A stretch of 60,392 bases of DNA from Folioceros fuciformis (GCA_049999805.1 JBNGIO010006095.1:1-60392); one strand, 5' to 3'. Shown: positions 2,273 to 43,958, counted from the stretch's first letter. Translations and numbers: made by a program. Notes: generated by a model from the sequence alone, not told the origin.

Positions 2273-2545
2273 CCTAAACCTGATTGAGCATTCCTACTAA
2301 GCTTCGGCAAGTGGGGGACAGGCAAATGTGAGTTAGATTAGGTGGGAAGGCAGGTGCGTTGCCGGTGGCGGTGAGGTAGGTGCATTCGGGAGATGGAGGG
2401 TCATGGGCACAGACTCATACGCCCGCCCAGCTTCAGCTCCAGCTCCACCTCCAGCACAAGATCTTGCAAAGCCGCTGGATGTCGCGGCTCCAGCTCGTCA
2501 GGATCCCCTTGCCTCCCGCACCTCCTTTGCAGCCCGCCCCCGTTC

Positions 2546-2645
2546 NNNNNNNNNNNNNNNNNNNNNNNNNNNNNNNNNNNNNNNNNNNNNNNNNNNNNNN
2601 NNNNNNNNNNNNNNNNNNNNNNNNNNNNNNNNNNNNNNNNNNNNN
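2546..2645. other. Assembly gap (100 N)
   Basis: Run of N. Confidence 1.
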
Positions 2646-3069
2646 CCTTCCAACCATCTCCTCTCTGCCCCGAGGCATGCCAACCACCTGATGGACCGCC
2701 TCATTTCCTCACGTCATGCCCGAAATGCGAAGGCAGACAGTCACACACGCCGAATGCGAGTCACGTTAACGCCAGATTCGATGACAGGATCGTCGGTTCC
2801 TCCAGGTCCGGTGCGAACCACACGGACCACGGCGTCCCTATCATCAGAACCACCAAGGTGCAAGATTCGCAAGGTGGTGTTCCTGGCCAAGCTCAGAAAC
2901 GCGGAGGCGAGAGACGAGTGACAGGATACAGCGCAGCCGCTGTTCTTCATACTCGTGTCCGGACAAGAGGGATAACGGACTCGCCAGACGCTCCCAAAGT
3001 GAAGGCAGCCTCAACCAGGTCTACACATTGCAAGGCAGTGAATGCATCTGTTTGCTGTGGCTAAGTATG

Positions 3070-3592
3070 TCACACACTTGGGATGTAAAACTCCACTTCC
3101 CGGATGTAAACAAGGGGAACAACACCATTGAACCCTTCTGTGAGTATGACGCCGTTGTCGGACATGAAAAGTTTCATCCCATCCTTGAGAGCTCTCCACA
3201 TCCAGGTGAATGAAAACTTCACAGATCTGTCGCATTCCGCTTATAACTCCGCATTGATTTGACAAGCCTGTGGCGAAGTGAATATGCAAGCGCCCCATTC
3301 TGCTCAATCCCACCTTCGTTATTTCATTCAAGTATGGGAGGTACGTACCATGGACATAAACTGCAACATCTTGAGCAGACAGAACTGGCGCCAAGAGGTG
3401 CTCTGTCTTGACCGCCGTGATCGAATGACCTTGATTAGCCCTAACAAGGAGCTTTCCAGTTTCCTCTAGCAGGCTAAATCTATGCTTCGTGTCGGAAGCA
3501 TCGGCATCTCGTACGTCGTCGATGGTATGTGACCTCAAGGCCACGCTTGCTGATGTCTTCACATTCAGCTTCAACAGCTCAGCTACATCTAT
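3070..3592 (-). other. Tpt1/KptA (PTS_2-RNA) domain segment, N-terminally truncated, intronless
   Basis: Motifs SHTIDDVR, KHRFSL, VRANQGHSI, VHGTY, GLSRMGRLHIHFA and GVISGMR. After a frameshift at ~3190 it reads ALKDGMKLFMSDNGVILTEGFNGVVP to a stop at 3072-3070. This is collinear with plant Tpt1. Confidence 0.92.
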
Positions 3593-5634
3593 GTCAAACA
3601 CCTTGTCACTGTCCGCTGTAGGAGTGATGCAATACTGTTCGCGCATAGCCTCAAAGTACCTGCGGCCCTTGGTCACTTCACCAGTGTGACTGCACGCTTT
3701 TAGCACACTAAGGAACGTAATGCCATCTGGCTGTATGCATTTGGAGAACCAAGTCAAACACCTTGTCACTGTCCCCTTGATGGGTGTACCCTGCAATAAG
3801 AGCACTCCAGGTGGTGACATCTCTGTTGGGCAATGTCTCAAAAACAAGCTGTGCATCAACCATGCTACTGCACTTCCCATACATGCTTATCAAACTGCGG
3901 GCCACAGGCAAGTCCCCTTGAAAACCTAGGTCTTTAATCTGTGCGTGAAGCTGCCTTCCCATACGTAAATCTGCCAGACTTCCACATGCCTGGAGCAGGG
4001 AAACAAATGTTACGGCGTTCGGCGCAACAATGCCTTCTTCTTGCATATCCCTGAAGAGGGCAAGGGCTTCCTGCCCCATGTCCAGCTGCGAATATCCTGT
4101 GATCATGGCGGTCCACGTCACCAAGTCCTTTCGAGGAAGCCCATCAAACACTCTGTGAGCATCTTCCAAGCTGCCACACTTTGCATACATGCAAACCAAA
4201 CTGCTAGCGACGAACACATCAGCTTCGTGTCCTCGTTCCATAATTTGCGCATGGAGCTGCTTCCCCGTCCCCAAAGCTGGTGCCCCTAAACTGGAACATG
4301 CCTGGAGGAGGCACACATAGGTCACAGCATTGGGTGACACGATGCCTTCGTCTTCCATAACCCGATACACACCAAGGGCTTCCTGAGCCATGCCTTGATG
4401 GGTGTATCCTGCTATCATAGCACTCCATGTCACAACTGTTTTATGACCAAGTCCATCAAACACGTCCCGAGCATCGTCCAGGCTGCCACACTTTGCATAC
4501 ATGTCTACCAAACTATTAGCTACAAATACATCGGCTTCAAGTCCGGCTTCTCTAATTTGTGCATAAAGCTGGTTACCATGGTCCAAAGCACGTGTGCCCA
4601 AACCTGAACATGCCTTTAGGAGGCAAACAAATGTTACTGAATCAGGCGCAACCATGCCTTCTTCTTGCATACACCTGTAGAGATGAAGAGCTTCCTGTCC
4701 CTTGCCCTGCTGGGTATACCCTGCAATCATGGCACTCCACACCACCACGTTTTTCTTAGGAAGTCCGTCAAATACCCTCAGAGCGTGGTCCAAGCTGCCA
4801 CACTTTGTATACATGTCCACCAAAGCAACTACAAACAAACAAGTCACCCTGCAAGCCGCCACTCAACACGTCAGCATGCACCTGCTGCCCAGATTCTAAA
4901 TCCCCTGCCCTAGCACAAGCCTGAAGGGCTGCTACAAAAACATGGCCATCTGGCTTCACACTCGATCTGCACAGCTCATGGTACAACTGTATGGCTTTCT
5001 CATCTTGTTTTTGTCTAACATGCGCAGAAATGATGGCAGACCACGTATACGCATCTGGTTCAGCTGCCATATTGAACACATCTCTCGCTTCTTGCAACCT
5101 GCCATGAGAAGCATACATTCGGAGGATGTGGTTGCACAGGAACGTGTCCGACTCATAACCTGTCTTCACGCTCAGATCATGAACACGGCGACCCAGAGGC
5201 AGATTCTTGCGAACCAAACATTCTTTCAGTACCGTGTATAAGAGGGATCTGGAGACCTCACAGCCGGTAAGCACCAGCACTCCCAGCGCATCGACAGCCT
5301 GGGCAAGCTGCCCTTGCCGACAGTGTGTGCTAACGCTTTCAGCCGTTACACCCCTTTGGCATCCTGCAGGCATCCGAGGCCCACCATCGAGTATATCCAG
5401 CACTCTCTGTATATCCAGCTGCTCATCCGCCCAGTCTGGCTTACGCACGTTGCTTGATCTGGAGAACCTCCTGGAGCTCCTCATCACGGAAGTCAGGCGA
5501 TGTGGAGCCATTGTCATCGTCACTGTGGTCCAAGCAGAAAAACAAGCAGCCGCAACACGTCCTGGTGACGCCCTCCTCTGGAAGGTCCACCAGGACACAT
5601 TGAGCAAATTGGGCGTCTTGCAAACATGCTGCAA
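3070..5634 (-). pseudogene. PLS-class PPR array fused to a C-terminal Tpt1/KptA RNA 2'-phosphotransferase domain; three frameshifts
   Basis: Consecutive ORFs 5634-4768, 4862-3708 and 3880-3011 carry P-L-S motifs (LVDMYAKCGSL, VVTWSAMIAGY, VTFVCLLKAC). Frameshifts lie near 4829 (+1), 3740 (about 11 nt deleted versus the paralogue at ~11535) and 3190. The last PPR motif (ACSHTG...ITPT) runs in frame into Tpt1 sequence. The 5' end is uncertain. Confidence 0.85.
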
Positions 5635-6369
5635 CTGCCGGCTTCATTGCCTCCTAAGGGCTGGCTCCTTGCGGTCACCTGAGCCAAGTCTCTTAAGAGC
5701 AAGAAGATGATATCATCCAGGCAGACATGGCTGGCAGGAGCACAAGGTGAGCCAACGGATGCAAGAGGCACCCACCCAAGTGCGCTTTCATCGCACAAAG
5801 CTTCACTAGATAGGACTCCTCTCAGGCGAGTGCAGTCAGGTGTCCAAGGCTGTGGGCGAAAGCATGGGGCATGGCGCCCCTGCATGAATGATTCCTCTGT
5901 TGAACGTACGCTCGGGACAAGATGAGTCGACAAGGGAAGGATATGGAGCATCTCCTGAGCACAACCTCATCGACGGAGCTGCAGTGACGGATGTGGTAGT
6001 AGCCATTGAAGCGTATGAGCTCATGTCATGCGGCTGATGAGACAGTTTACTTGAACAGTACTTGCACCAACAGATACCTCGCAAGAAAGTGAGCATTCCC
6101 TTCCTTGGCCTAACGCCTCGAGCCCTGGCCATAAAATTTTGATCTGCATGTAGCTCCGTAGGAGTCCCATCATGCCTTCCTTCCCCACAGGCTACTACGG
6201 GGGCGAAGGCATCATGCATACAACACGGTGGGGAAAGGAGCGCACCCCATCCAAGAACTGATCCGTCCCTGGGAGACTACCTGGGGAGTTCCAATGTCCT
6301 GACCTCTGGAGACTGCTTCAAAGGGATAACGGCATTGGCAAGCTCCCCTTCTCCTCCTGTTCGACTCTT

Positions 6370-9116
6370 TCAACTGCAACAATCGTTTGCGAATCGATGC
6401 ACTCGGTACCCATCTCTCACAACAATGTGACTCTTTTCAAGCCTTGACATGATCTCGGTGCAGCTGTGACAGTCACTGCACATGCGTAGATTCTTCGTCA
6501 CCACCAGGGGTGTCCCACTCGAAGTGTTCAACAGACCAAACGCCAGAGCTAGCTTCTCAGCATGCCCACAAAGCGCATCTTCCTTTTCCTTCTCACGCAG
6601 AGGCTTCAACACCAAATTTGTGCGAGGAACGTGGCCTCCTTCCTGCTTCAGTCGTGCATTCGTGCACTCTACCTTCAGCGCGATATCCTCTCTCCTGCCT
6701 CCCACCACAAATCTATGTACTTGCTTTTTCCCCTCAATGCTCGCAACTCCAGGTTTCTTGTTGGCTCCTGCTACTAGTCTCTGTGTTTCAATCCGGTCTA
6801 TATCGCTCCACCTGCCTGCATCTGCGCAGACATTGGCCATGAGCACATACGTGGGCGCCCACCGACAGTCCAGTTTCACCAGACTGTCGAAACACCACAT
6901 CGCCCTCTCTACATCTCCGTGACTTCTGCACGCATTCAATGGCGACGTCAGCCCCACAACATTCCTTCGGTCCTCACAAGACAAAACATTTTCTCAGCCT
7001 CATCTAAATGGCCTGTACGCCCAGAAAGGTCAACCATGCAATTGTAATGCTCAAGAGCAGGTTTGATTGATGGCATGCTCTTCAGCGATGGAATCAAAGT
7101 ACTTGCGGCTGGCCCTCGTGGACCAGTCCCTCGTGACTGCATGTTGCTACAAGGCATGTAAAAGTTGCACCATCAGGCGGAATACCAGCAAATAGCATCT
7201 CCTCAATACAAGCTTATGCTCTGTGCCCATCACCACCCACGCACCATACCCAGATGTCAGGGCATTCCATGTCACCACATTCCTTGTGGTCATGCTGTCA
7301 AAAACCTGGCGTGCATCTTCCAGTTCCCCGCATTTTGCATACAAGTCCACCAGGCAATTGCCACTACGTTGTCCAGCAGTCCACTTTCACCAATCTGTCA
7401 GTGCAGCTGCCTGCCCGTCTGCAAGGCACCTGTGCTGGCTCGGGCGTTGAGGAGGCAAGCAAAAGTAAAATGGTTAGCCAAAACAAGGCCTTTCTGCTCC
7501 ATTTGTTCGTACACCACAAGTGCCTCATGTCAGAGTCGTTGCTGGGAAGACCCAGCAGTCAGCACCGTCCATGTCACCACATCCTTGGTGGCCACGCTGT
7601 CAAACACCTGGCGTGCATCTTCCATGGAGTTCACAACCTTTTGCATACGTGTGGGCACCAAGCAGTTGCCCAACACCACGTTATCCACCAGTTTTTTTTC
7701 CACAATCTGTGATTGCAGCTGCCTGCCTCTCTGGGAGGCACCCGTGCTTCTGTAGGCCTTCAGAAGGTAAGCAAAAGTAACGTGGTTAGCCTCAACGTGG
7801 CCTTCTTCTTCCATTTGTTCATACAGAACCAGCGCCTCGCAAGCAAGAGCTTGCTGTGCATACCCAGCAATCAGGGCGTTCCATGGCACCACGTTCTTTG
7901 TGTTCATGGTGTTAATAACCTGGCGTGCATCCTCCAGTTCCCCACATTTTGCGTACATGTCCACCAGGCTGGTTCCCAAAACTATGTCATCCAGCAGGCC
8001 TCTTTCCACCATCTGTCAGTGCAGCTGCCTGCCCTTTCTGTAAGGCACCAGTAATCCGCTCCCACAGGCATTCAAGAAGCAAGCAAAGGTGACATGGTTT
8101 GCCAAAATGAGGTCCTCTTGCTCCATTTTTCTACATAGCAGAAGAAGAAGAAGAAGCGCATCTTGACCAAGTCGTTGCTGTGCATACCCAGCCATCAGAG
8201 CATTCCATGTCACCACATCCTTGGTGGCCAAGCTGTCAAACACCTGGCGTGCATCTTCCATGGAGTTCACAACATTTTGCATACATGTGGACACCAAGCA
8301 GTTGCCCAACACCACGTTATCCACCAGTTTTCTTTCAACAATCTGTGACTACAACTCCCTTCCCATCCATCTGTAAGGCACCAGTGCTTGCACATGAGTC
8401 CAGAAGACAAGCAAAAAGTAACATGCTTGGCCAAAAGCAGCCCCTCCTGCTCCATTTGTCCATACACAGCAAGAGCCTCATGTCCAAGCCCTTCCTGGCC
8501 ATACCCAGCAATCAGGGTGGTCCATGTCAACACATTCTTTGTGGAAAAACTCTCGAACACCTGGCGTGCATCTTGCAATTCGCCACATTTTGCATGCGTC
8601 CACCAGGGAGGTGCCAACAAACAAGTCAGGACGAATGCCACTGTGCAACACATCAGAGTGCACTCTACTGCCAGATTCCAAGTCGGCAGCGAATGCACGA
8701 GCTTGCAGGGCAGGTACGAAGACGTGAGCATCAGCCTTCACTCCTGACCTACGCATGTCATGGTACAGTTGTATGGCCTCTTTAGGCTTCCCACGTACGT
8801 ATACGCGGAGATCATGGAAAACCAAACGAAGGCATCTGGTTTGCACACCCTGGTGAACACGGTCATGGCCTCCTCCAGACTACCTCCACATGCATACATG
8901 CCGCGAGATATGGTTCCCCAAGTATGCATCCGCATCGTACCCAAGCTTCGCCGTAACATCATGAACTCTTCGTCCCACAGCCAAATCCTTCTTAGCTGTA
9001 CAATGCTTTAACACAGTGTATAACAGAGACTGTAAAATGGCAGTTTTTTCCTGTGCCAGAGAATCCAGGATGCCAACCGCCTCAGAAATCTTCCCCTGCT
9101 GACATAGCATGGTCAC
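6370..9116 (-). pseudogene. Decayed PLS-PPR-E-DYW:KP gene
   Basis: PPR motifs are spread over at least 8 short ORFs in changing frames. The C-terminal ORF 6984-6370 has ANKKPGVASIE, CGHAEKLALAFG, NLRMCSDCH and HRFANDCCS, then TGA where the last Cys is expected. Confidence 0.9.
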
Positions 9117-9925
9117 TGCTGTAGCCGTTAGTTACCATGCCCGTTTCCGAACCTATATGCATGCCACGTTCTGGCTTATAACGAAAGCACTTGGATAGAG
9201 AGACATCATGACTCATCTGTATACGTATCCAAGAAAACGAGCTGCTCATCCACCCATGCTGGCTTGGCTTATACATGCTGTGTAACCAGAGGACCTCGCC
9301 AGATCCCTTACGCCGGAAGTCAGGCGAACGGGAGCTCTTCGTATCTCGTTGCTCTGTTGTCCCACCACATGGTAGGGTCCAAGAAAAGTTGTTGCCACAA
9401 GTGCTTCTGCTCCTGGCGACGACCATCCTTGCAAAATCCGTCCCCACCCACACTACTCATCGGAAGCGGAACTGCTGGGCTCCTTGCACATGTACTGTAC
9501 TCAGCTTGGCACATCAGCCCATGGTTGTCGCAGGAAGCTACAATCATGGTTCAGGCTGGAAATTGCGTGGGAGGTGTTGGAGCGATGATTCTCGATTATG
9601 GTCCGGTGTAGTGAGCTTTCCGTTTGTCGCTCAGTTTCTATACTGGCTTCTGAAGCTGGCTGAAATAGGCAGTAGCCGGGGCGCAGTTTGTCCGTTCTTC
9701 GAAACGCAGAGTATGGCGCTGGCCCGTGATCGCCTGCTCCGGGGATGATACAGGTATTGAGGATGTCATCTCCGGCGATGAATCCGCTGCTCTGGTCTGG
9801 TCTGGCCTGGTGTCGGACATTGGACTCGATTTCAGGGTTTAAAGCAGGTCAGCAGGGAAAGAAAGAGGTAGGACTGTTTAGGCTCTCTCACAACAGCTGA
9901 TGTTCACAAATCTGCCCGAGCCTTT

Positions 9926-12034
9926 TTGTTGCATCCGTATGAGGGGCTGGAGGCCATGGCTGTCTGTAGCTTTGCAATTCAATCATGCCAACGTGACCCG
10001 TCGGGGCTGCATTCTCTCTGGACGCAACCAAGCGGTCCAGGAAGAGCTTCCGATGACCTGATTTCATGGCACAAGCCAATAGCAAATTACGAATCCGCGA
10101 GGTTCAGCACCTCTGCAGGAAGGCCAACTCGTGCAGCAGGGCGTCTGGCTGGACCTGGATCCAGCAGCTCGGAATTTTTGTATTCGCAGCTCGATCCTCT
10201 GCAGTCCTGTCATGACCCTGGCAGGCCTGCAGGATCCGTCACAGCTGAAACTGTGAGCAACCTTTGTCGGCAGGGGAAGCTCGCTGAGGGTGTTGATGCT
10301 CTGGGAGCTCTGGTACGCACCGAGATTCGTATCCCTAAATCCCTTTTTTACACCGTATTCAAGGAGTGTGTGGCTAAGAAGGACTTGTGTCTGTGTCGCC
10401 GTGTTCATGCTCTGGTGGTGGAGAGGGGGCATGAGTCGGACACGTTCTTGTGCAACCACATTCTGCGAATGTATGCTTCTCATGCCATGTTGCAAGAAGC
10501 TTTGGATGTGTTCGCTGTGGTTTCCAGACCCGATGCCTTCACGTGGTCCGCCATGATATCTGCGCTCGTTAAACATGGACAGGACAAGCAGGCCGTGCAA
10601 CTGTATCGTGGGATGCGCAGGTCGGGTGTGAAGCCAGATGGCCATGTGTTTGTAGCAGCCCTTCAGGCTTGTGCCAGGGGAGCAGACCTGGAATCTGGGC
10701 AGCAGGTGCATGCTGATATTATGGCTACTGGAGTTGAGCCTGACTTGTTTGTCTGTAGTGGCTTGGTGGATATGTATGCAAAGTGTGGCAGCTTGGAAGA
10801 GGCTCAAACAGTCTTCGACGGGTTTCCCAACAGAGATGTGGTGACATGGAATGCCATGATAGCAGGGTATGCCCAGAAGGGCATGGGGCTGGAGTGCCTT
10901 CGTTTGTATGGGCGTATGCAAGAAGAAGGTACAACTGCACCCAGTTCTGTGACATTCGTGTGCCTTCTGCAGGCATGCGCAAGTTTGGGGAATCAAGTGT
11001 TGGATCAGGGTAAGCAGCTTCACGCACATATTCGAGAACGAGGACTTGAAGCTGATGTAGTTGTCGGTGGGAGCCTGGTGAACATGTATGCAAAGTGTGG
11101 AAGCCTAGAGGATGCTCGTGGCGTGTTTGATGGACTTTGTCAAAAAAATGTGGTGACGTGGAATACCATGATAGCACGTTATTCCCAGCAGAACATGGGG
11201 CATGAAGCCCTAGGTCTCTACAGGGCTATGCAACACGAAGGCATTGTTGCCCTCGATTCTGTGACCTTTGTGTGCCTTCTTCGGGCATGTGAAAGTGTAG
11301 GAGCTCTGCAATTGGGACGTCAGCTGCATGGACAAATCAAACATTTAGGGCTGCAGGCTGACACCACTGTCGGCAACAGTTTGATAAACATGTATGCAAA
11401 GCTGGGGAGCATGGTCGACGCACAGCAGGTGTTTGATCTTTTGCCGGAAAGAAACATTCTCACCTGGAGTGCACTGATTGCAGGCTACGCCCGTCAAGGA
11501 GACAGTGGTGTGGTTTTCGACTTGCTTCTCAGAATGGGCAAGGCTGGCATACAACCAGACGGAGTTACTTTTCTTAGTGCTCTCACAGTATGCAGTCATA
11601 CGGGTCAGGTGACCCAGGGGCGACAGTACTTCGAGGCCATGACCAACAACTACGGTATAACTCCCACAGTGGATCACTACACATGCATGGTGGATCTCCT
11701 AGGTCGCGCAGGACGACTGGAGGAAGCACTAGGTTTTGTAAGGACAATGCCTGTAAGGCCTGATGCTGCAGTGTGGCGCACTCTCCTGGGTTCTTGTAGA
11801 AAATGGGCGGATGTGGAGGTGGGACGTCATGCTTTCGATGCAGCAGTGAAGCTAGACAAGCAAGATCCCTCAGCATATATCTTGATGTCGAACATATACA
11901 CTAGTGCTCAGATGTGGGAGCAGGCAGAGGAGGTGCAGGCAAGAAGAGTAGCCCTTGGGGCATGGAAGCAGCCGGGGCAGAGCTGGTGGACAGACATGGA
12001 CGGATCAGTACATAGCTTTTTCAGCTGGGGATAA
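9926..12034 (+). CDS. PLS-PPR-E1/E2 protein with a WW-type PG box, truncated before the deaminase domain
   Basis: 702-aa ORF of PLS motifs and E motifs (HYTCMVDLLGRAG, WRTLLGSCR), ending KQPGQSWWTDMDGSVHSFFSWG*. The true start is uncertain because the ORF begins at TTG. Confidence 0.88.
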   Translation: MLHPYEGLEAMAVCSFAIQSCQRDPSGLHSLWTQPSGPGRASDDLISWHKPIANYESARFSTSAGRPTRAAGRLAGPGSSSSEFLYSQLDPLQSCHDPGRPAGSVTAETVSNLCRQGKLAEGVDALGALVRTEIRIPKSLFYTVFKECVAKKDLCLCRRVHALVVERGHESDTFLCNHILRMYASHAMLQEALDVFAVVSRPDAFTWSAMISALVKHGQDKQAVQLYRGMRRSGVKPDGHVFVAALQACARGADLESGQQVHADIMATGVEPDLFVCSGLVDMYAKCGSLEEAQTVFDGFPNRDVVTWNAMIAGYAQKGMGLECLRLYGRMQEEGTTAPSSVTFVCLLQACASLGNQVLDQGKQLHAHIRERGLEADVVVGGSLVNMYAKCGSLEDARGVFDGLCQKNVVTWNTMIARYSQQNMGHEALGLYRAMQHEGIVALDSVTFVCLLRACESVGALQLGRQLHGQIKHLGLQADTTVGNSLINMYAKLGSMVDAQQVFDLLPERNILTWSALIAGYARQGDSGVVFDLLLRMGKAGIQPDGVTFLSALTVCSHTGQVTQGRQYFEAMTNNYGITPTVDHYTCMVDLLGRAGRLEEALGFVRTMPVRPDAAVWRTLLGSCRKWADVEVGRHAFDAAVKLDKQDPSAYILMSNIYTSAQMWEQAEEVQARRVALGAWKQPGQSWWTDMDGSVHSFFSWG

Positions 12035-13478: not shown

Positions 13479-14112
13479 GCTAAGCATGTTACTTCTGGTT
13501 ATACCGTGTTAAAAGGGGACTGGAAGATACGACAGCTGGTAGGCAACAGAACTCTCAGAGCATGAACTTGTAACGGAAATGGTACTTCATCTTCGGCTTG
13601 TTGGAAAGGTTTTGCACCCCACTTGAGGATTTGACGATTCATGCCTGGAAGTGTGGTGAAGTGAGTTTGCGGAGTATAGGAATGGACAACACCTCCCTAG
13701 ATCTTGGGAGGCGGGACAATAAGAAGTGGAATTGGGAATCGATTTCATGGAGACGAAAGCTAGAAACGTCAGTCCAGAAAATCCAAACACGGAAGACGCC
13801 ATATACCTTGGATGATGACGCAGACGTTTCAATTTATGTTTTAATATTTTTTTGAATGAAAAGTCTATGCTAAGTGATATCATGTCGAAGTTTCAAGTAG
13901 TAACTTACAACCTTGCTCTCCAAATTGCACCGCTGGTTTGTAGTCTAGTGGAGTGGAGCTTATTGAAATACTAGAGAGCCATACGTAGGTGATCCACTTA
14001 AACAACTAAAAAATTTATGAAATATAAGCAACTAAGCATAATGCTTTTCTCTAGGGATGGAAGTGAAAGCAAGTTCGAGACACCCATGTGTGGTTACGTA
14101 ATAAAGCACACT

Positions 14113-14990
14113 TTGGGTTCACACTCTAAACATTGGGTTCACATTGTAGACCACACTTGGGTTCACACTCTAAACATTGGGTTCACATTGTAGACCAAAT
14201 GTTTCTCCGTGAGTACCATGTGGATTCAATGACACCAATAAGGAGCAATATAGATCCAGTGGATTCAAAGACCCAGCGGATTCAATACCACCAACAAGGA
14301 GCAATATGGCCCCAACGTGGATTCAACGCCATCAACAAGGGGCAATATGAACCCAATGTATGATATTCAACACTACCAACAAGGAGCGATATGGACCCAA
14401 TGTATAGTGACGCGCAGTGTGAACTCAAAAGTAATAGTATGGATCCAATGTATGTTATTAGCAAGGCATAGTGTGGACCAAATGGCAAGCAAGTAGTGTG
14501 GACTGCATGCTTCTAGCAAGGTGTAGTGTGGATTGAATGATTCTAGCAAGACACAATGCGGATTCAATGATTCTAGCAAAGCATAGCATAGTACTAGTGT
14601 GGATTGAATATTCTAGCAAGGTGTCATTCAGACTCAATGGCGTGTGGACCCAATGGCAAGCGAGTAGTGTGGATTGAATGATTCTAGCAAGGTGTCGTTC
14701 AGACTCAATGGCGGAGTGTGGACCCAATGGCAAGCGAGTACTGTGGATCCAATGATTCTAGCAAGCGAATATTGTGGATCCAATGATTCTAGCAAGCGAA
14801 TATTGTGGATCAACTGATTCTAGCAATCGAGTAGTGTGGATCCAATGATTCCAACAAGCGAATATTGTGGATCACTGAACTGATTCTAGCAAGCGAGTAG
14901 TGTGGATCCAATGATTCCAGCAAGCGAATATTGTGGATCACTGAACTATTTCTAGCAAGTGAGTAGTGTGGATCCAATGATTCTAGCGGG
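14113..14990. repeat. Minisatellite island: 44-bp dimer, then a degenerate-to-homogeneous ~31-bp array (gtggatccaatgattctagcaagcgaatatt)
   Basis: The 44-bp unit starts at 14113 and 14157. About 8 well-conserved 31/35-bp units span 14743-14988, with more diverged gtgga(t/c) units from ~14220. Confidence 0.9.
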
Positions 14991-15359
14991 GCCTAGTCTC
15001 TACTCAATGCTTTTGACAGGGACCCAACTTATAATGCCTGGTAAGAGATAATGTGGACGCAACTCATATCTCTAGCAAGGCGCAACATGGATGCAACCCA
15101 ACCTTTGTCATTTGCAACGTTATAGCGAGAACGTACTGTTATTGGTAAATTTAAAGTGTATGTATGTGGATCCAATGTTACCTACAAGTCAAGATGTGGA
15201 CTTAAACGTTATCTACAAGCGGTGGTGAGGGCAAAATGTTAAGGGCAAGGTCTAAACCTAGATTGCATGGAGTCCAACCCAATGTTACTAGCAAGTCCTA
15301 GACTATGTGGACCCGATGTTGCTGGCAAGATGGAAACATTGGACGTAGTCTGTAATTGT

Positions 15360-15498
15360 TGCAACAATGGGTAGCACATAAACTGCAACAATGGGTAGCA
15401 CATAAACTGCAACAATGGGTAGCACAGAAATTGCAACAATGGGTAGCAGATAGTTGGTTATGTGGCCAGGGGTAGCAGATAGTTGGTTATGTGGCCAG
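15360..15498. repeat. 24-bp tandem repeat (x~4) merging into a 29-bp duplication
   Basis: tgcaacaatgggtagcacataaac units start at 15360, 15384, 15408 and 15432. gggtagcagatagttggttatgtggccag starts at 15441 and 15470. Confidence 0.92.
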
Positions 15499-26100: not shown

Positions 26101-27732
<1,632 letters not shown>

Positions 27733-41021: not shown

Positions 41022-43958
41022 CTACAATTTTGGTTTGCTTGCCTTGGCGCTACTTTTAACTGGAGGCTCACTATTCGGAGGCTCAGTTACTGCAGGCTCA
41101 TTCTTTGCTGTCAAAAAAGCATCGATGACCGCAAACAGAGGCCATTCCTTCGTGGCTGCAGAATCACCAGCAGTCCCTTGCTCAGCCTTCAGTCTCTCAT
41201 GCTTCTTGAACAAGGATGTCCACATGGATTTACATTGGTCAGGAGTTCGATTCACACCCCGCTCGCCAAGGGCAGCTGATACATCAAGCCACAAGCCTCG
41301 TTTCGCTCTTGTGCGGCTGGCCTGCACCTCCATGCTACTGCGCACTTCGAATAACAATGCAGCCTCCTCGGTTGTCCATCTCTTTCGCTTCCTCCCGTCA
41401 GTCTTCGCTTCGGCTGACAACTTCTCTGCAACCTCATCTGTTTGTTCATCTGATGACTGTTCATCTAACATACTACCTGCCGCCCCATCCTCGACCGCTT
41501 CTAGCACTCCTCCGGTCTCGCTATCAACACGGAGCACAGGTACCTCCTCAATCAGTCCCGGTACCTCCTCAACTCGTTCTATCACACTAGTCACATCATC
41601 TGTCAGAATACCCAGGGCCTCCTCCTCCTCCATGGCCTCCAGCAAGGAAGCTGCTCCATTCTTTCCATCTGTTATTACAGAGAGAGACTCTTGTTCGGTG
41701 ACGACATCCGAGACTACTGAGCTGAGCACAGCAACGTCATCTTGGGTAATCCTTGAGACAACTTCAACGTGCTTTTCTTCAGCCCTCACTTTATCCACTC
41801 TATCGACACCGCTTGGTGCCTTGGAGCGCCCAACTGCAATAACAACGACATCTGGCCTACGATTGCTGAATTTCTGCACCACCCTTCGCAACACATTCCC
41901 AATAGTTCTCTCCACGGTTATGAGAGACATATCAGCAGAGCAACTTGCCAAGGCCACATCGGCTGCTTTGTACAGAAGATCCATAAGCTTCCCGCCATCA
42001 ACCCAAAGACACCTTGTAATTATTCGGACGCGGCCCCTCATGCCCACAGCCGAAGAATCTTGGCCTTTTCGTCGCTTAGAATCATCATGATTGTGTACTT
42101 CTACACTGGCAAAGACAATGCCTTCTTGAGCAATGTGCAGTCGCTCATCCACACAAAGATCTGAAGCTGTCCCAAACGCTCTCTGGCCGTCGTTGTACAT
42201 AAGCTTCAACTTCTGCTGGCCAAGGGCACAGAAGCCACTGGACAGGACCCTACCGTTTCGAAGTGGAGCAACCCCAAGCATTTCGCCATTTTTGATGACG
42301 GTGGTATGCCTAATGCCCGTCGACTTGCCAAGTAGCTCGTGCTCCTTCATGAATGCATACTCCCCGTGAATTGGCAAGAAGTGTTGGGGCTTCACAAGCC
42401 TCAAAGCCTCCTCCAGTTCCCCACGATAAGCGTGCCCCGAAGTGTGCAAATTGTCCCCTCTTCCCATGATAATAGTTGGCCCCAGCTCAGCGATGCGATT
42501 CATCATCTTCACCACTCGCGTCTCATTCCCTGGAATCATTTTGGCAGAGTAGAGCACCAAATCATCCTTGGTCAGCTTGAGAGCCCGACTGCCGCCAAAA
42601 GAGGCCAGATTCAAAGCTGCCCGAGGCTCAGCCTGCGAGCCCGTGGTGACAATGACCAGGTCCCGGGGGGAGTACAGGCCGATATCTTCCGACTTAACCA
42701 GCAGCGAGGGATCAAAGGGGGCCTGACCATCTTTAAACGCCGCATCGAAGTACGTCTTCAGCGACAGTCCCAGAAAAACGAGCTTACGTCCAGCAGCCTG
42801 TGCTGCTGCAAACACGCTGCCAAGGCGGTGCACATTGGATGCAAACTGTGTGGTGATGACCCGGCCCTTCGCAGAGGTGATTTTCCGCATCAACGCCTCT
42901 GCCACATCTGCCTCGCTGGTGGTGCGGCCCTGAGACAACACATTGGTAGAATCGCTCATCATCAGAGTAACACCCTCCTTAGCCAGCTGCTCCAATGCGA
43001 CACGATCAAAAACCTTGCCATCCACGGGGGACTCATCAATCTTCCAGTCGCCCGTGTGGAAAATGGTGCCATTCTGACATCGCAGCACCAGCCCACAACA
43101 ATCGGGAATGGAGTGCGTAACCCTGATCGGCTCCACCTCAAAGGGGCCTGCCTGAAACCTCTTGTGCATACTCACAATCTTACACCTGGATCCGGGATGA
43201 ATGCTGTACTCCTTGAGCCTCTTCACAATGAGCTGCATGGTGAATCCCGTTGCGTAAATCGGGGTCTTCGAATCTAAGGCCGGGATAACCCATGGCAACG
43301 CACCAATGTGATCCTCATGCCCGTGCGTGATGATAACCGCCTCGATCTTATCCCGCCACCGCCGAATGAAGTTAGTGTCAGGCAGCACTCGCTGAACTCC
43401 CAGCTCATCGTAGTCAGGAAACATGAGCCCAGCATCGATCATAATATACCTGTACAACGCACATTCATCGTGACAAACCAAACAGGAAAGGCAAGGAAAA
43501 TGACAGCGAAAAATCCAATTCAATCCAATCCAATCCATACTTCACACATACCTGTCATAGTTTCCTACAAGCATACAGTTCATCCCGATTTCCCCAAGCC
43601 CGCCTATAGGGAGAATGCGCAGTGGCGGACCTTCCTGGCCCTCGTGAAACTCCTTCAGCTTGCGGTGCACAGCGTCGTCCAAGCTGTGGCCCACGCCTTC
43701 CCCCTTGGACGTCCGCTTCCCCCCACGCCGACGGGACGCCGACGCGGTGGAGCAGCTCACACACAGCCTCCTTTCTCTGCTACACTTGCCGCTGCCGCTG
43801 CTGGTCGGACACAAGAAAATGGTGTCCCATTGGTGCCTGCGCAAGGCGCAACTGCTGGCGCTGCCGAGACGCATCTCCGCGTCGCTAGGGCGGCAGCCAT
43901 GGCCATGGCCAAGCCGCTTGCAATCGCCTGCTGCCAAAGGCAGGCAGGAAAAATTCAT
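41022..43958 (-). CDS. RNJ: Ribonuclease J (chloroplast type) with a C-terminal GT-1/trihelix-like domain
   Basis: Motifs [46 protein letters not shown] and PIHGE, plus C-terminal RWTTEE...LWLDVS...[10 protein letters not shown]. One in-phase intron spans 43551-43450. The start is taken at the first ATG. Confidence 0.96.

Follow-up and report, generated by a model that had tools for sequence, protein, structure and literature searches.

The minus strand of a 60,392-nucleotide stretch of DNA from Folioceros fuciformis (hereafter the window) carries, from about position 5520 to position 3070, a PLS-class PPR array that passes after its L2 motif into a Tpt1 domain, with no stop between them. The initial annotation saw in this arrangement the architecture of a sequence-targeted enzyme for RNA ADP-ribosylation or dephosphorylation, while allowing that the copy might be a dead chimera or the relic of a family intact elsewhere. 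The question raised by this locus is whether such an enzyme is, or ever was, encoded here. A working PPR-Tpt1 enzyme would be a natural case of guide-free targeting of NAD+-dependent RNA chemistry, of value both for RNA biology and for tool building. We consider it probable that the locus is instead a lineage-specific, one-off chimeric pseudogene, in which a truncated PLS PPR gene is joined to a host TPT1 copy that is headless and probably derived from cDNA. The caveat of a dead chimera is thus the reading favoured by the frameshifts, the missing residues, the joint resembling a repair scar and the residue replacements described below. The enzyme itself finds no support, two of the four catalytic residues being gone and the frameshifts being real.

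The gene is spanned by three stop-free frames (5643-4768, 4862-3708 and 3886-3011), and Pfam searches placed PPR repeats in the first two. Frame 4862-3708 matched PF01535 with an E value of 4.5e-54 and PF13041 with an E value of 3.6e-53, and the array as a whole gave PPR, PPR_2, PPR_1 and PPR_3 matches (PF01535, PF13041, PF12854, PF13812). P, L and S motifs are present, and the PLS triplets recur with a periodicity of 312 nt. The putative start of the array reads MAPHRL..., its coordinate being taken from the translation and approximate. Compared with a paralogue located 6 kb away (9872-12034), the array shows 71-74% nucleotide identity, and this homology ends near position 3612. No reading frame is intact across the PPR array, which is interrupted by frameshifts at 4827/4828 and 3737/3738. 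An orthologous PPR protein was not recognisable among the 120 matches listed, ranked by repeat score, from a protein search returning 5408 matches (best identity 60%). The window itself is a cluster of about 10 PLS-E/DYW genes. The coordinates of the features discussed here are given in Table 1.

Table 1. Features of the PPR-Tpt1 locus and its 3' flank, with positions counted from the first letter of the window.
Feature	Position	Strand	Basis or remark
PLS-class PPR array	3617..5520	-	Pfam; 312-nt periodicity; homology to paralogue 9872-12034
Frameshift 1: one extra T, in an AGTTGC run on the minus strand	4827..4828	-	Frame change from ORF 5643-4768 to ORF 4862-3708
Frameshift 2: 11-nt deletion in the P2/L2 linker	3737..3738	-	Frame change from ORF 4862-3708 to ORF 3886-3011
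22-nt exact copy of 3753-3774 (P2 motif GDSDKVFD)	3593..3614	-	Repeat search; spacing 160
5'-truncated, intron-free host-type TPT1 copy (Tpt1/KptA, profile positions 32-177)	3073..3592	-	PF01885; tblastn
Frameshift 3: 2-nt deletion in the Tpt1 NAD+ lobe	3192..3193	-	Pfam match and tblastn split over two frames
Scaffold gap, 100 N	2545..2645	.	Some 425 nt beyond the stop codon of the Tpt1 part; outside the gene; limits statements on the 3' flank

The PPR motifs reach the end of L2 (...ACSHTGEVTKGRRYFEAMREQYCITPT), and S2, E1, E2 and DYW are missing. In the translation, ...ACSHTGEVTKGRRYFEAMREQYCITPT is followed by ADSDKVFDIDVAELL... and later by RANQGHS, HGT, GLSRMGRLHIHF and VISGMR, with the junction reading '...REQYCITPT/ADSDKVFDIDVAELL'. 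The array had been described as stopping exactly where E1 begins, an assignment that has to be corrected by one motif. In the paralogue at 9872-12034, ITPT is followed at residue 600 by VDHYTCMVDLLGR; HYxCMVDLLGR also starts at this residue, S2 extends from it, and the Pfam E motif does not begin before residue 646. It is thus the L2/S2 boundary, and not E1, at which the array is cut. Within the fusion gene, Pfam gave no match to the E motif or to DYW. A tblastn search with a full PPR-DYW protein found its C-terminal matches at 10 other loci and detected no S2/E/DYW remnant 3' of the fusion. This indicates replacement of the tail, as opposed to a simple interruption.

What replaced it is recognised in frame 3886-3011 by the PF01885 profile (PTS_2-RNA), with an E value of 8e-29 and 101.4 bits (cut-off 26) over positions 32-158 of 177; together with the motifs and the junction in the translation, this match confirms the uninterrupted passage from the PPR array into a Tpt1 domain. 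At 3240-3070, in a different frame, profile positions 157-177 are matched with an E value of 0.004; the stop codon occupies 3072-3070. Plant TPT1 proteins aligned by tblastn to 3592-3188 and 3195-3085 (frames -2 and -3), with 0 gaps over 135 and 37 residues and with 56-59% identity. The nearest proteins to the segment are land-plant TPT1 proteins, at 55-60% identity, and judged by this similarity the segment is a copy of the plant's own (host-type) TPT1. A bacterial or horizontal origin was considered and rejected on the same ground, land-plant TPT1 being the nearest relatives.

The Tpt1 segment carries the third and fourth arginines of the catalytic tetrad as well as RANQGHS, HGT, RxHIHF and VISGMR. 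The Arg-His-Arg-Arg tetrad is incomplete: Tpt1 homology runs only from 3592, so that the RNA lobe is short of its first ~31 profile positions, including the Arg-His pair of the LRH motif, whose absence had been noticed at the outset. LRH is common to all 24 aligned plant TPT1 proteins and lies about 20 residues ahead of the first aligned window residue. An LRH-bearing TPT1 part was absent throughout the 60 kb in tblastn searches with three plant TPT1 proteins, in which the other matches all had E > 0.1. The tetrad is essential for Tpt1, with its first Arg and His at the extreme N-terminus of the RNA lobe, and the Runella enzyme carrying the R16A change is 380-fold slower in step 1 and 710-fold slower in step 2 (PMC6333775). 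Since the segment lacks the N-terminal Arg-His and the first strand and helix, the canonical NAD+-dependent reaction would not be possible. The frame through both Tpt1 lobes is also broken, by the 2-nt deletion at 3192/3193. As far as its sequence allows one to judge, the proposed enzyme cannot be produced from the locus as it now stands: the Arg-His pair was never there, and three frameshifts come in addition.

The joint between the two parts gives a clue to how they came together. The space between the end of PPR homology (~3612) and the start of Tpt1 homology (3592) is filled by an exact 22-nt copy of sequence from the P2 motif. By our own estimate, ~2e-7 repeats of 22 nt would be expected by chance in 2.9 kb. 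A short copy of nearby sequence exactly at a joint is a known signature of templated filler in error-prone end joining. Plant end-joining junctions can hold such templated filler DNA, a topic linked with polymerase theta. The 22-nt repeat has the look of filler templated during the repair of a break, and the junction would in that case preserve the signature of the repair event.

The origin of the Tpt1 piece was approached through homologous sequence from a related organism (organism C). A 1673-nt contig of this organism matches the window only over 3340-3591, with 29 differences, and its flanks of 446 and 975 letters are unmatched; the exon-like match ends at 3591. This one contig has the appearance of a single exon of native TPT1, and suggests that the window copy came from spliced RNA. 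A cDNA origin of the intron-free Tpt1 segment is likely. From 3070 to the N gap at 2645, the sequence shows neither a poly(A) tract nor a target-site duplication, and classical LINE-type retroposition is therefore not supported by its hallmarks.

We propose that a PLS-class PPR gene for an RNA-editing factor, belonging to the local cluster, suffered a break where its S2 motif begins, and that its S2-E1-E2(-DYW) tail was swapped for a 5'-truncated, spliced (cDNA-derived) copy of nuclear TPT1. The pieces would have been united by error-prone end joining, with 22 nt from 160 nt upstream copied as filler, and the joint would be in frame by chance, an outcome expected one time in three. Later drift of the locus would then have brought the three frameshifts and have replaced Tpt1 residues that are conserved in plants, and the gene was probably never functional. 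Chimeric processed pseudogenes and retrogenes that arise from cDNA capture at double-strand breaks form a known class. The locus resembles them in being intron-free, 5'-truncated and fused to a resident gene, with a nearby copy at the joint, but differs from them in having no visible poly(A) tract or target-site duplication.

The three frameshifts were examined in public sequencing runs of the same organism, in which the share of sampled words found was 0.97 for X1 (2017), 0.92 for X2 and 0.86 for X3 (both 2025). Contigs of X1 and X2 were aligned to 2650-7300. The site of frameshift 1, at which the paralogue reads LFVCSGLVDMY, lies within contigs showing 0 differences from the window in both runs (X1 4485-4955, X2 4486-4942). 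At frameshift 2, the X1 and X2 contigs are identical to the window, and a 177-nt contig of organism C (3647-3812) has 11 letters inserted behind 3737, which restore the frame. At frameshift 3, contigs of X1 (2875-3960) and X2 (3038-3292) are again identical to the window, and a contig from a further related organism (organism D) has 2 extra letters behind 3192. Since the 11 nt are present in organism C and the 2 nt in organism D, the state of the window at these two sites is derived. That none of the three frameshifts, including the one of 11 nt, is a sequencing error is borne out by these 0-difference contigs from two studies. Rescue by splicing, RNA editing or recoding was also considered and rejected, the indels (+1, -11 and -2 nt) lying inside conserved motifs.

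The Tpt1 segment also shows signs of drift. Over 3391-3515, 16 differences between the window and organism C were listed, of which nine are non-synonymous and seven synonymous; this count is a sample, drawn from 20 read differences listed for the Tpt1 part, with 589 further differences beyond. Four of these sites encode D, D, H and T in the window but E, V, Q and N in organism C, the latter being the residues common to nearly all 24 aligned plant TPT1 proteins. Residues conserved in plants have thus been lost from the window copy and retained in organism C, a pattern pointing to relaxed constraint on the segment. A second copy in the same organism as the window, covering 3360-3432, agrees with the window and not with organism C in four states; over this interval only two positions, both synonymous, separate it from the window. 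Because the window and the second copy stand together against organism C, the window copy appears to be younger than the split from that organism.

It is improbable that a once-working PPR-Tpt1 gene, expressed and selected for a time, left this locus behind as a recently pseudogenised relic, perhaps with intact copies in close relatives. Such a gene might have encoded a PPR-guided NAD+/ADP-ribose-binding module, or the missing Arg-His might have been supplied otherwise. The in-frame junction and the conserved Tpt1 motifs, mostly intact, speak for it; so do the disabling changes, which are all small indels, two of them missing from the homologous sequences of relatives, and the synonymous nature of three of the four known differences between the window and the second copy. 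The three correct frames contain zero in-frame stop codons over ~2.5 kb, a further point in its favour. However, by our own rough estimate the Tpt1 part would be free of stops under neutrality with a chance of ~20%, so the absence of stops does not discriminate; together with the intact main motifs, it fits either a young, recently dead gene or one constrained for a while. Against a once-working gene stand the two catalytic residues, of the four that are essential (PMC6333775), that were absent from the outset, and the replacement of plant-conserved residues, among them the changes V to D, N to T and Q to H. The apparent age of the copy also counts against it: being seemingly younger than the split from organism C, the copy would not be expected in organisms C and D. 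An organism D contig matching the L2 region stops at 3611, at the end of PPR homology and short of the filler and Tpt1, which may be read, weakly, as a further point against such a gene. The listed contigs of organisms C and D end at the joint or short of it, and the uncovered parts count as no evidence.

Three protein searches also brought up no PPR-Tpt1 fusion. No PPR Pfam domain was present in any of 53 longer Tpt1 relatives or 67 near-length Tpt1 matches, and PF01885 was absent from all 120 long PPR relatives among the matches listed. In a library of 1.84 billion representatives, the best 150 of 3165 matches included no joined PPR-Tpt1 protein; the top matches with two stretches that were fetched are tandem Tpt1-Tpt1 proteins, and the 10 long matches scanned have no PPR domain. 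The literature, judged by titles, likewise yielded no PPR-Tpt1 fusion. These searches concern databases from which the host proteome is evidently missing, the best PPR identity being 60%. The suggestion of a family still intact elsewhere thus receives no support from protein searches or literature, and an intact PPR-Tpt1 copy in a close relative is unlikely. It would be a long shot to suppose that the fusion once was, or in a close relative or another accession still is, intact and expressed, with a sequence-specific PLS PPR array directing the Tpt1 lobe that binds NAD+ to RNA of the organelles. The protein would then be a guided NAD+/ADP-ribose-handling module in place of the DYW deaminase, and the window copy a freshly broken remnant.

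A one-off pseudogene could also have arisen by capture at the DNA level, through a segmental rearrangement bringing in a genomic piece of an intron-poor TPT1 paralogue or a fragment carried by a transposable element; we regard this as quite unlikely. It agrees with the lack of a visible poly(A) tail or target-site duplication, and with the occurrence in the window of several other genes that are long uninterrupted ORFs, such as that for RNase J (839 aa). A high-copy repeat, which begins some 200 nt past the stop codon of the Tpt1 part, on its downstream side, also speaks for it: the depth of X1 is 277-530 at 2650-2961 versus ~30 over the gene. Four ORFs in this flank (2646-3213) gave no significant Pfam match, the best being DUF7639 with an E value of 0.037. 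Run X1 is probably DNA, because intergenic bins and the gene have the same depth. Against a DNA-level event, the depth over the Tpt1 part corresponds to one to two copies and not to an amplified element, and the organism C contig, which matches in one 252-nt block with long unmatched flanks, suggests introns in the native gene.

The junction itself is covered by a 1086-nt X1 contig over 2875-3960, by an X2 contig over 3270-3960, and with the contigs named above the two runs together span the junction and all three frameshifts, with 0 differences each, in two studies carried out eight years apart. X1 or X2 may be the source of the assembly, and at least one of them is therefore independent of it. 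Such agreement between studies makes misassembly and base-calling error very unlikely, and the possibility, raised by the initial annotation, that raw reads would fail to support the junction is not borne out. A misjoined junction, or an intact gene with base-calling errors in place of frameshifts, is hardly credible in view of these contigs, and because sequencing errors do not typically take the form of a deletion of 11 nt or a templated duplication of 22 nt, despite the 100-N gap 425 nt downstream and the possible identity of one supporting run with the assembly source.

The locus can be compared with several known systems. PLS-class PPR editing factors are built of P-L-S triplets followed by P2-L2-S2-E1-E2-DYW; the N-terminal two thirds of the locus, with their 312-nt periodicity, are like them, whereas the window gene ends after L2 and has two frameshifts inside the array. 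With plant nuclear TPT1 the locus shares 55-60% identity across positions 32-177 of the profile, and it has arginines three and four of the tetrad as well as HGT and VISGMR. The window copy differs from it by the absence of the ~31 first positions, the 2-nt deletion in the NAD+ lobe and the replacement of several plant-conserved residues. Natural Tpt1 fusions do exist: Tpt1-Yae1 of fission yeast is one (PMC12810181), and our matches contained tandem Tpt1-Tpt1 and Tpt1-protease-like proteins. The locus shares with them a Tpt1 domain joined to another module. Theirs, however, is a complete Tpt1 in an open frame and with no PPR array, whereas that of the locus is truncated and broken.

The evidence favours a mutational accident, and the locus leaves knowledge of RNA editing and of Tpt1 unchanged. 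It may serve as an example of how fast-evolving PPR clusters make and discard chimeras. It also carries a warning for annotation, as a 'PPR-Tpt1 fusion protein' may be called at this locus by gene prediction software. Of note, the upstream neighbour at 6367-9100 is likewise split across three frames, and decaying PPR copies are therefore not unusual in this region.

Two versions of the 3' part of the Tpt1 segment are present in run X2, a 2025 sequencing run of the same organism, and one of them matches the window exactly. The second version, 261 nt in length, carries 19 differences and 6 gap letters relative to the window. At position 3127, this divergent version agrees with C and D, two related organisms whose contigs match parts of the window. 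It is probably the last exon of the host's native TPT1.

Features of the window discussed in the text
Feature	Position	Strand
Perfect 52-nt tandem duplication	2168-2273	
Scaffold gap (100 N)	2545-2645	
High-copy sequence	2650-2961	
Tpt1 3' part, two versions in X2	3038-3292	
Upstream PPR-DYW gene	6367-9100	minus
Closest paralogue of the broken gene	9872-12034	plus
Tandem-repeat block	14107-15498	
PF00291 ORF	26101-27732	minus
RNase J ORF	41022-43541	minus

About 200 nt 3' of the Tpt1 stop codon lies a sequence found in high copy in the same organism. In X1, a run from a 2017 study, summed contig depth was 277-530 over this stretch, compared with about 30 over the broken PPR-Tpt1 gene. A Pfam search of the stretch gave no match. 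The scaffold gap adjoins it on the side farther from the stop.

In tblastn, the PPR-DYW gene directly upstream of the broken gene is split between frames -3, -1 and -2. Its DYW domain lies at 6370-6993 (E 3.5e-29), and the gene appears to be another broken PPR member of the cluster. The closest paralogue ends with the E motif and lacks the DYW domain. Several other cluster members possess one.

Two ORFs elsewhere in the window are unbroken. The RNase J ORF (839 aa) encodes metallo-beta-lactamase, beta-CASP and RMMBL domains followed by a C-terminal Myb/SANT-like domain, with no sign of introns within it. The other (543 aa) contains a PF00291 domain of pyridoxal-phosphate-dependent enzymes (E 3.6e-54) and is located within the PPR cluster, at the GC peak of the window (0.58). 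Besides the 52-nt duplication, several short tandem-repeat arrays with periods of 20-74 nt form one block (14.1-15.5 kb) in an intergenic, AT-richer stretch.
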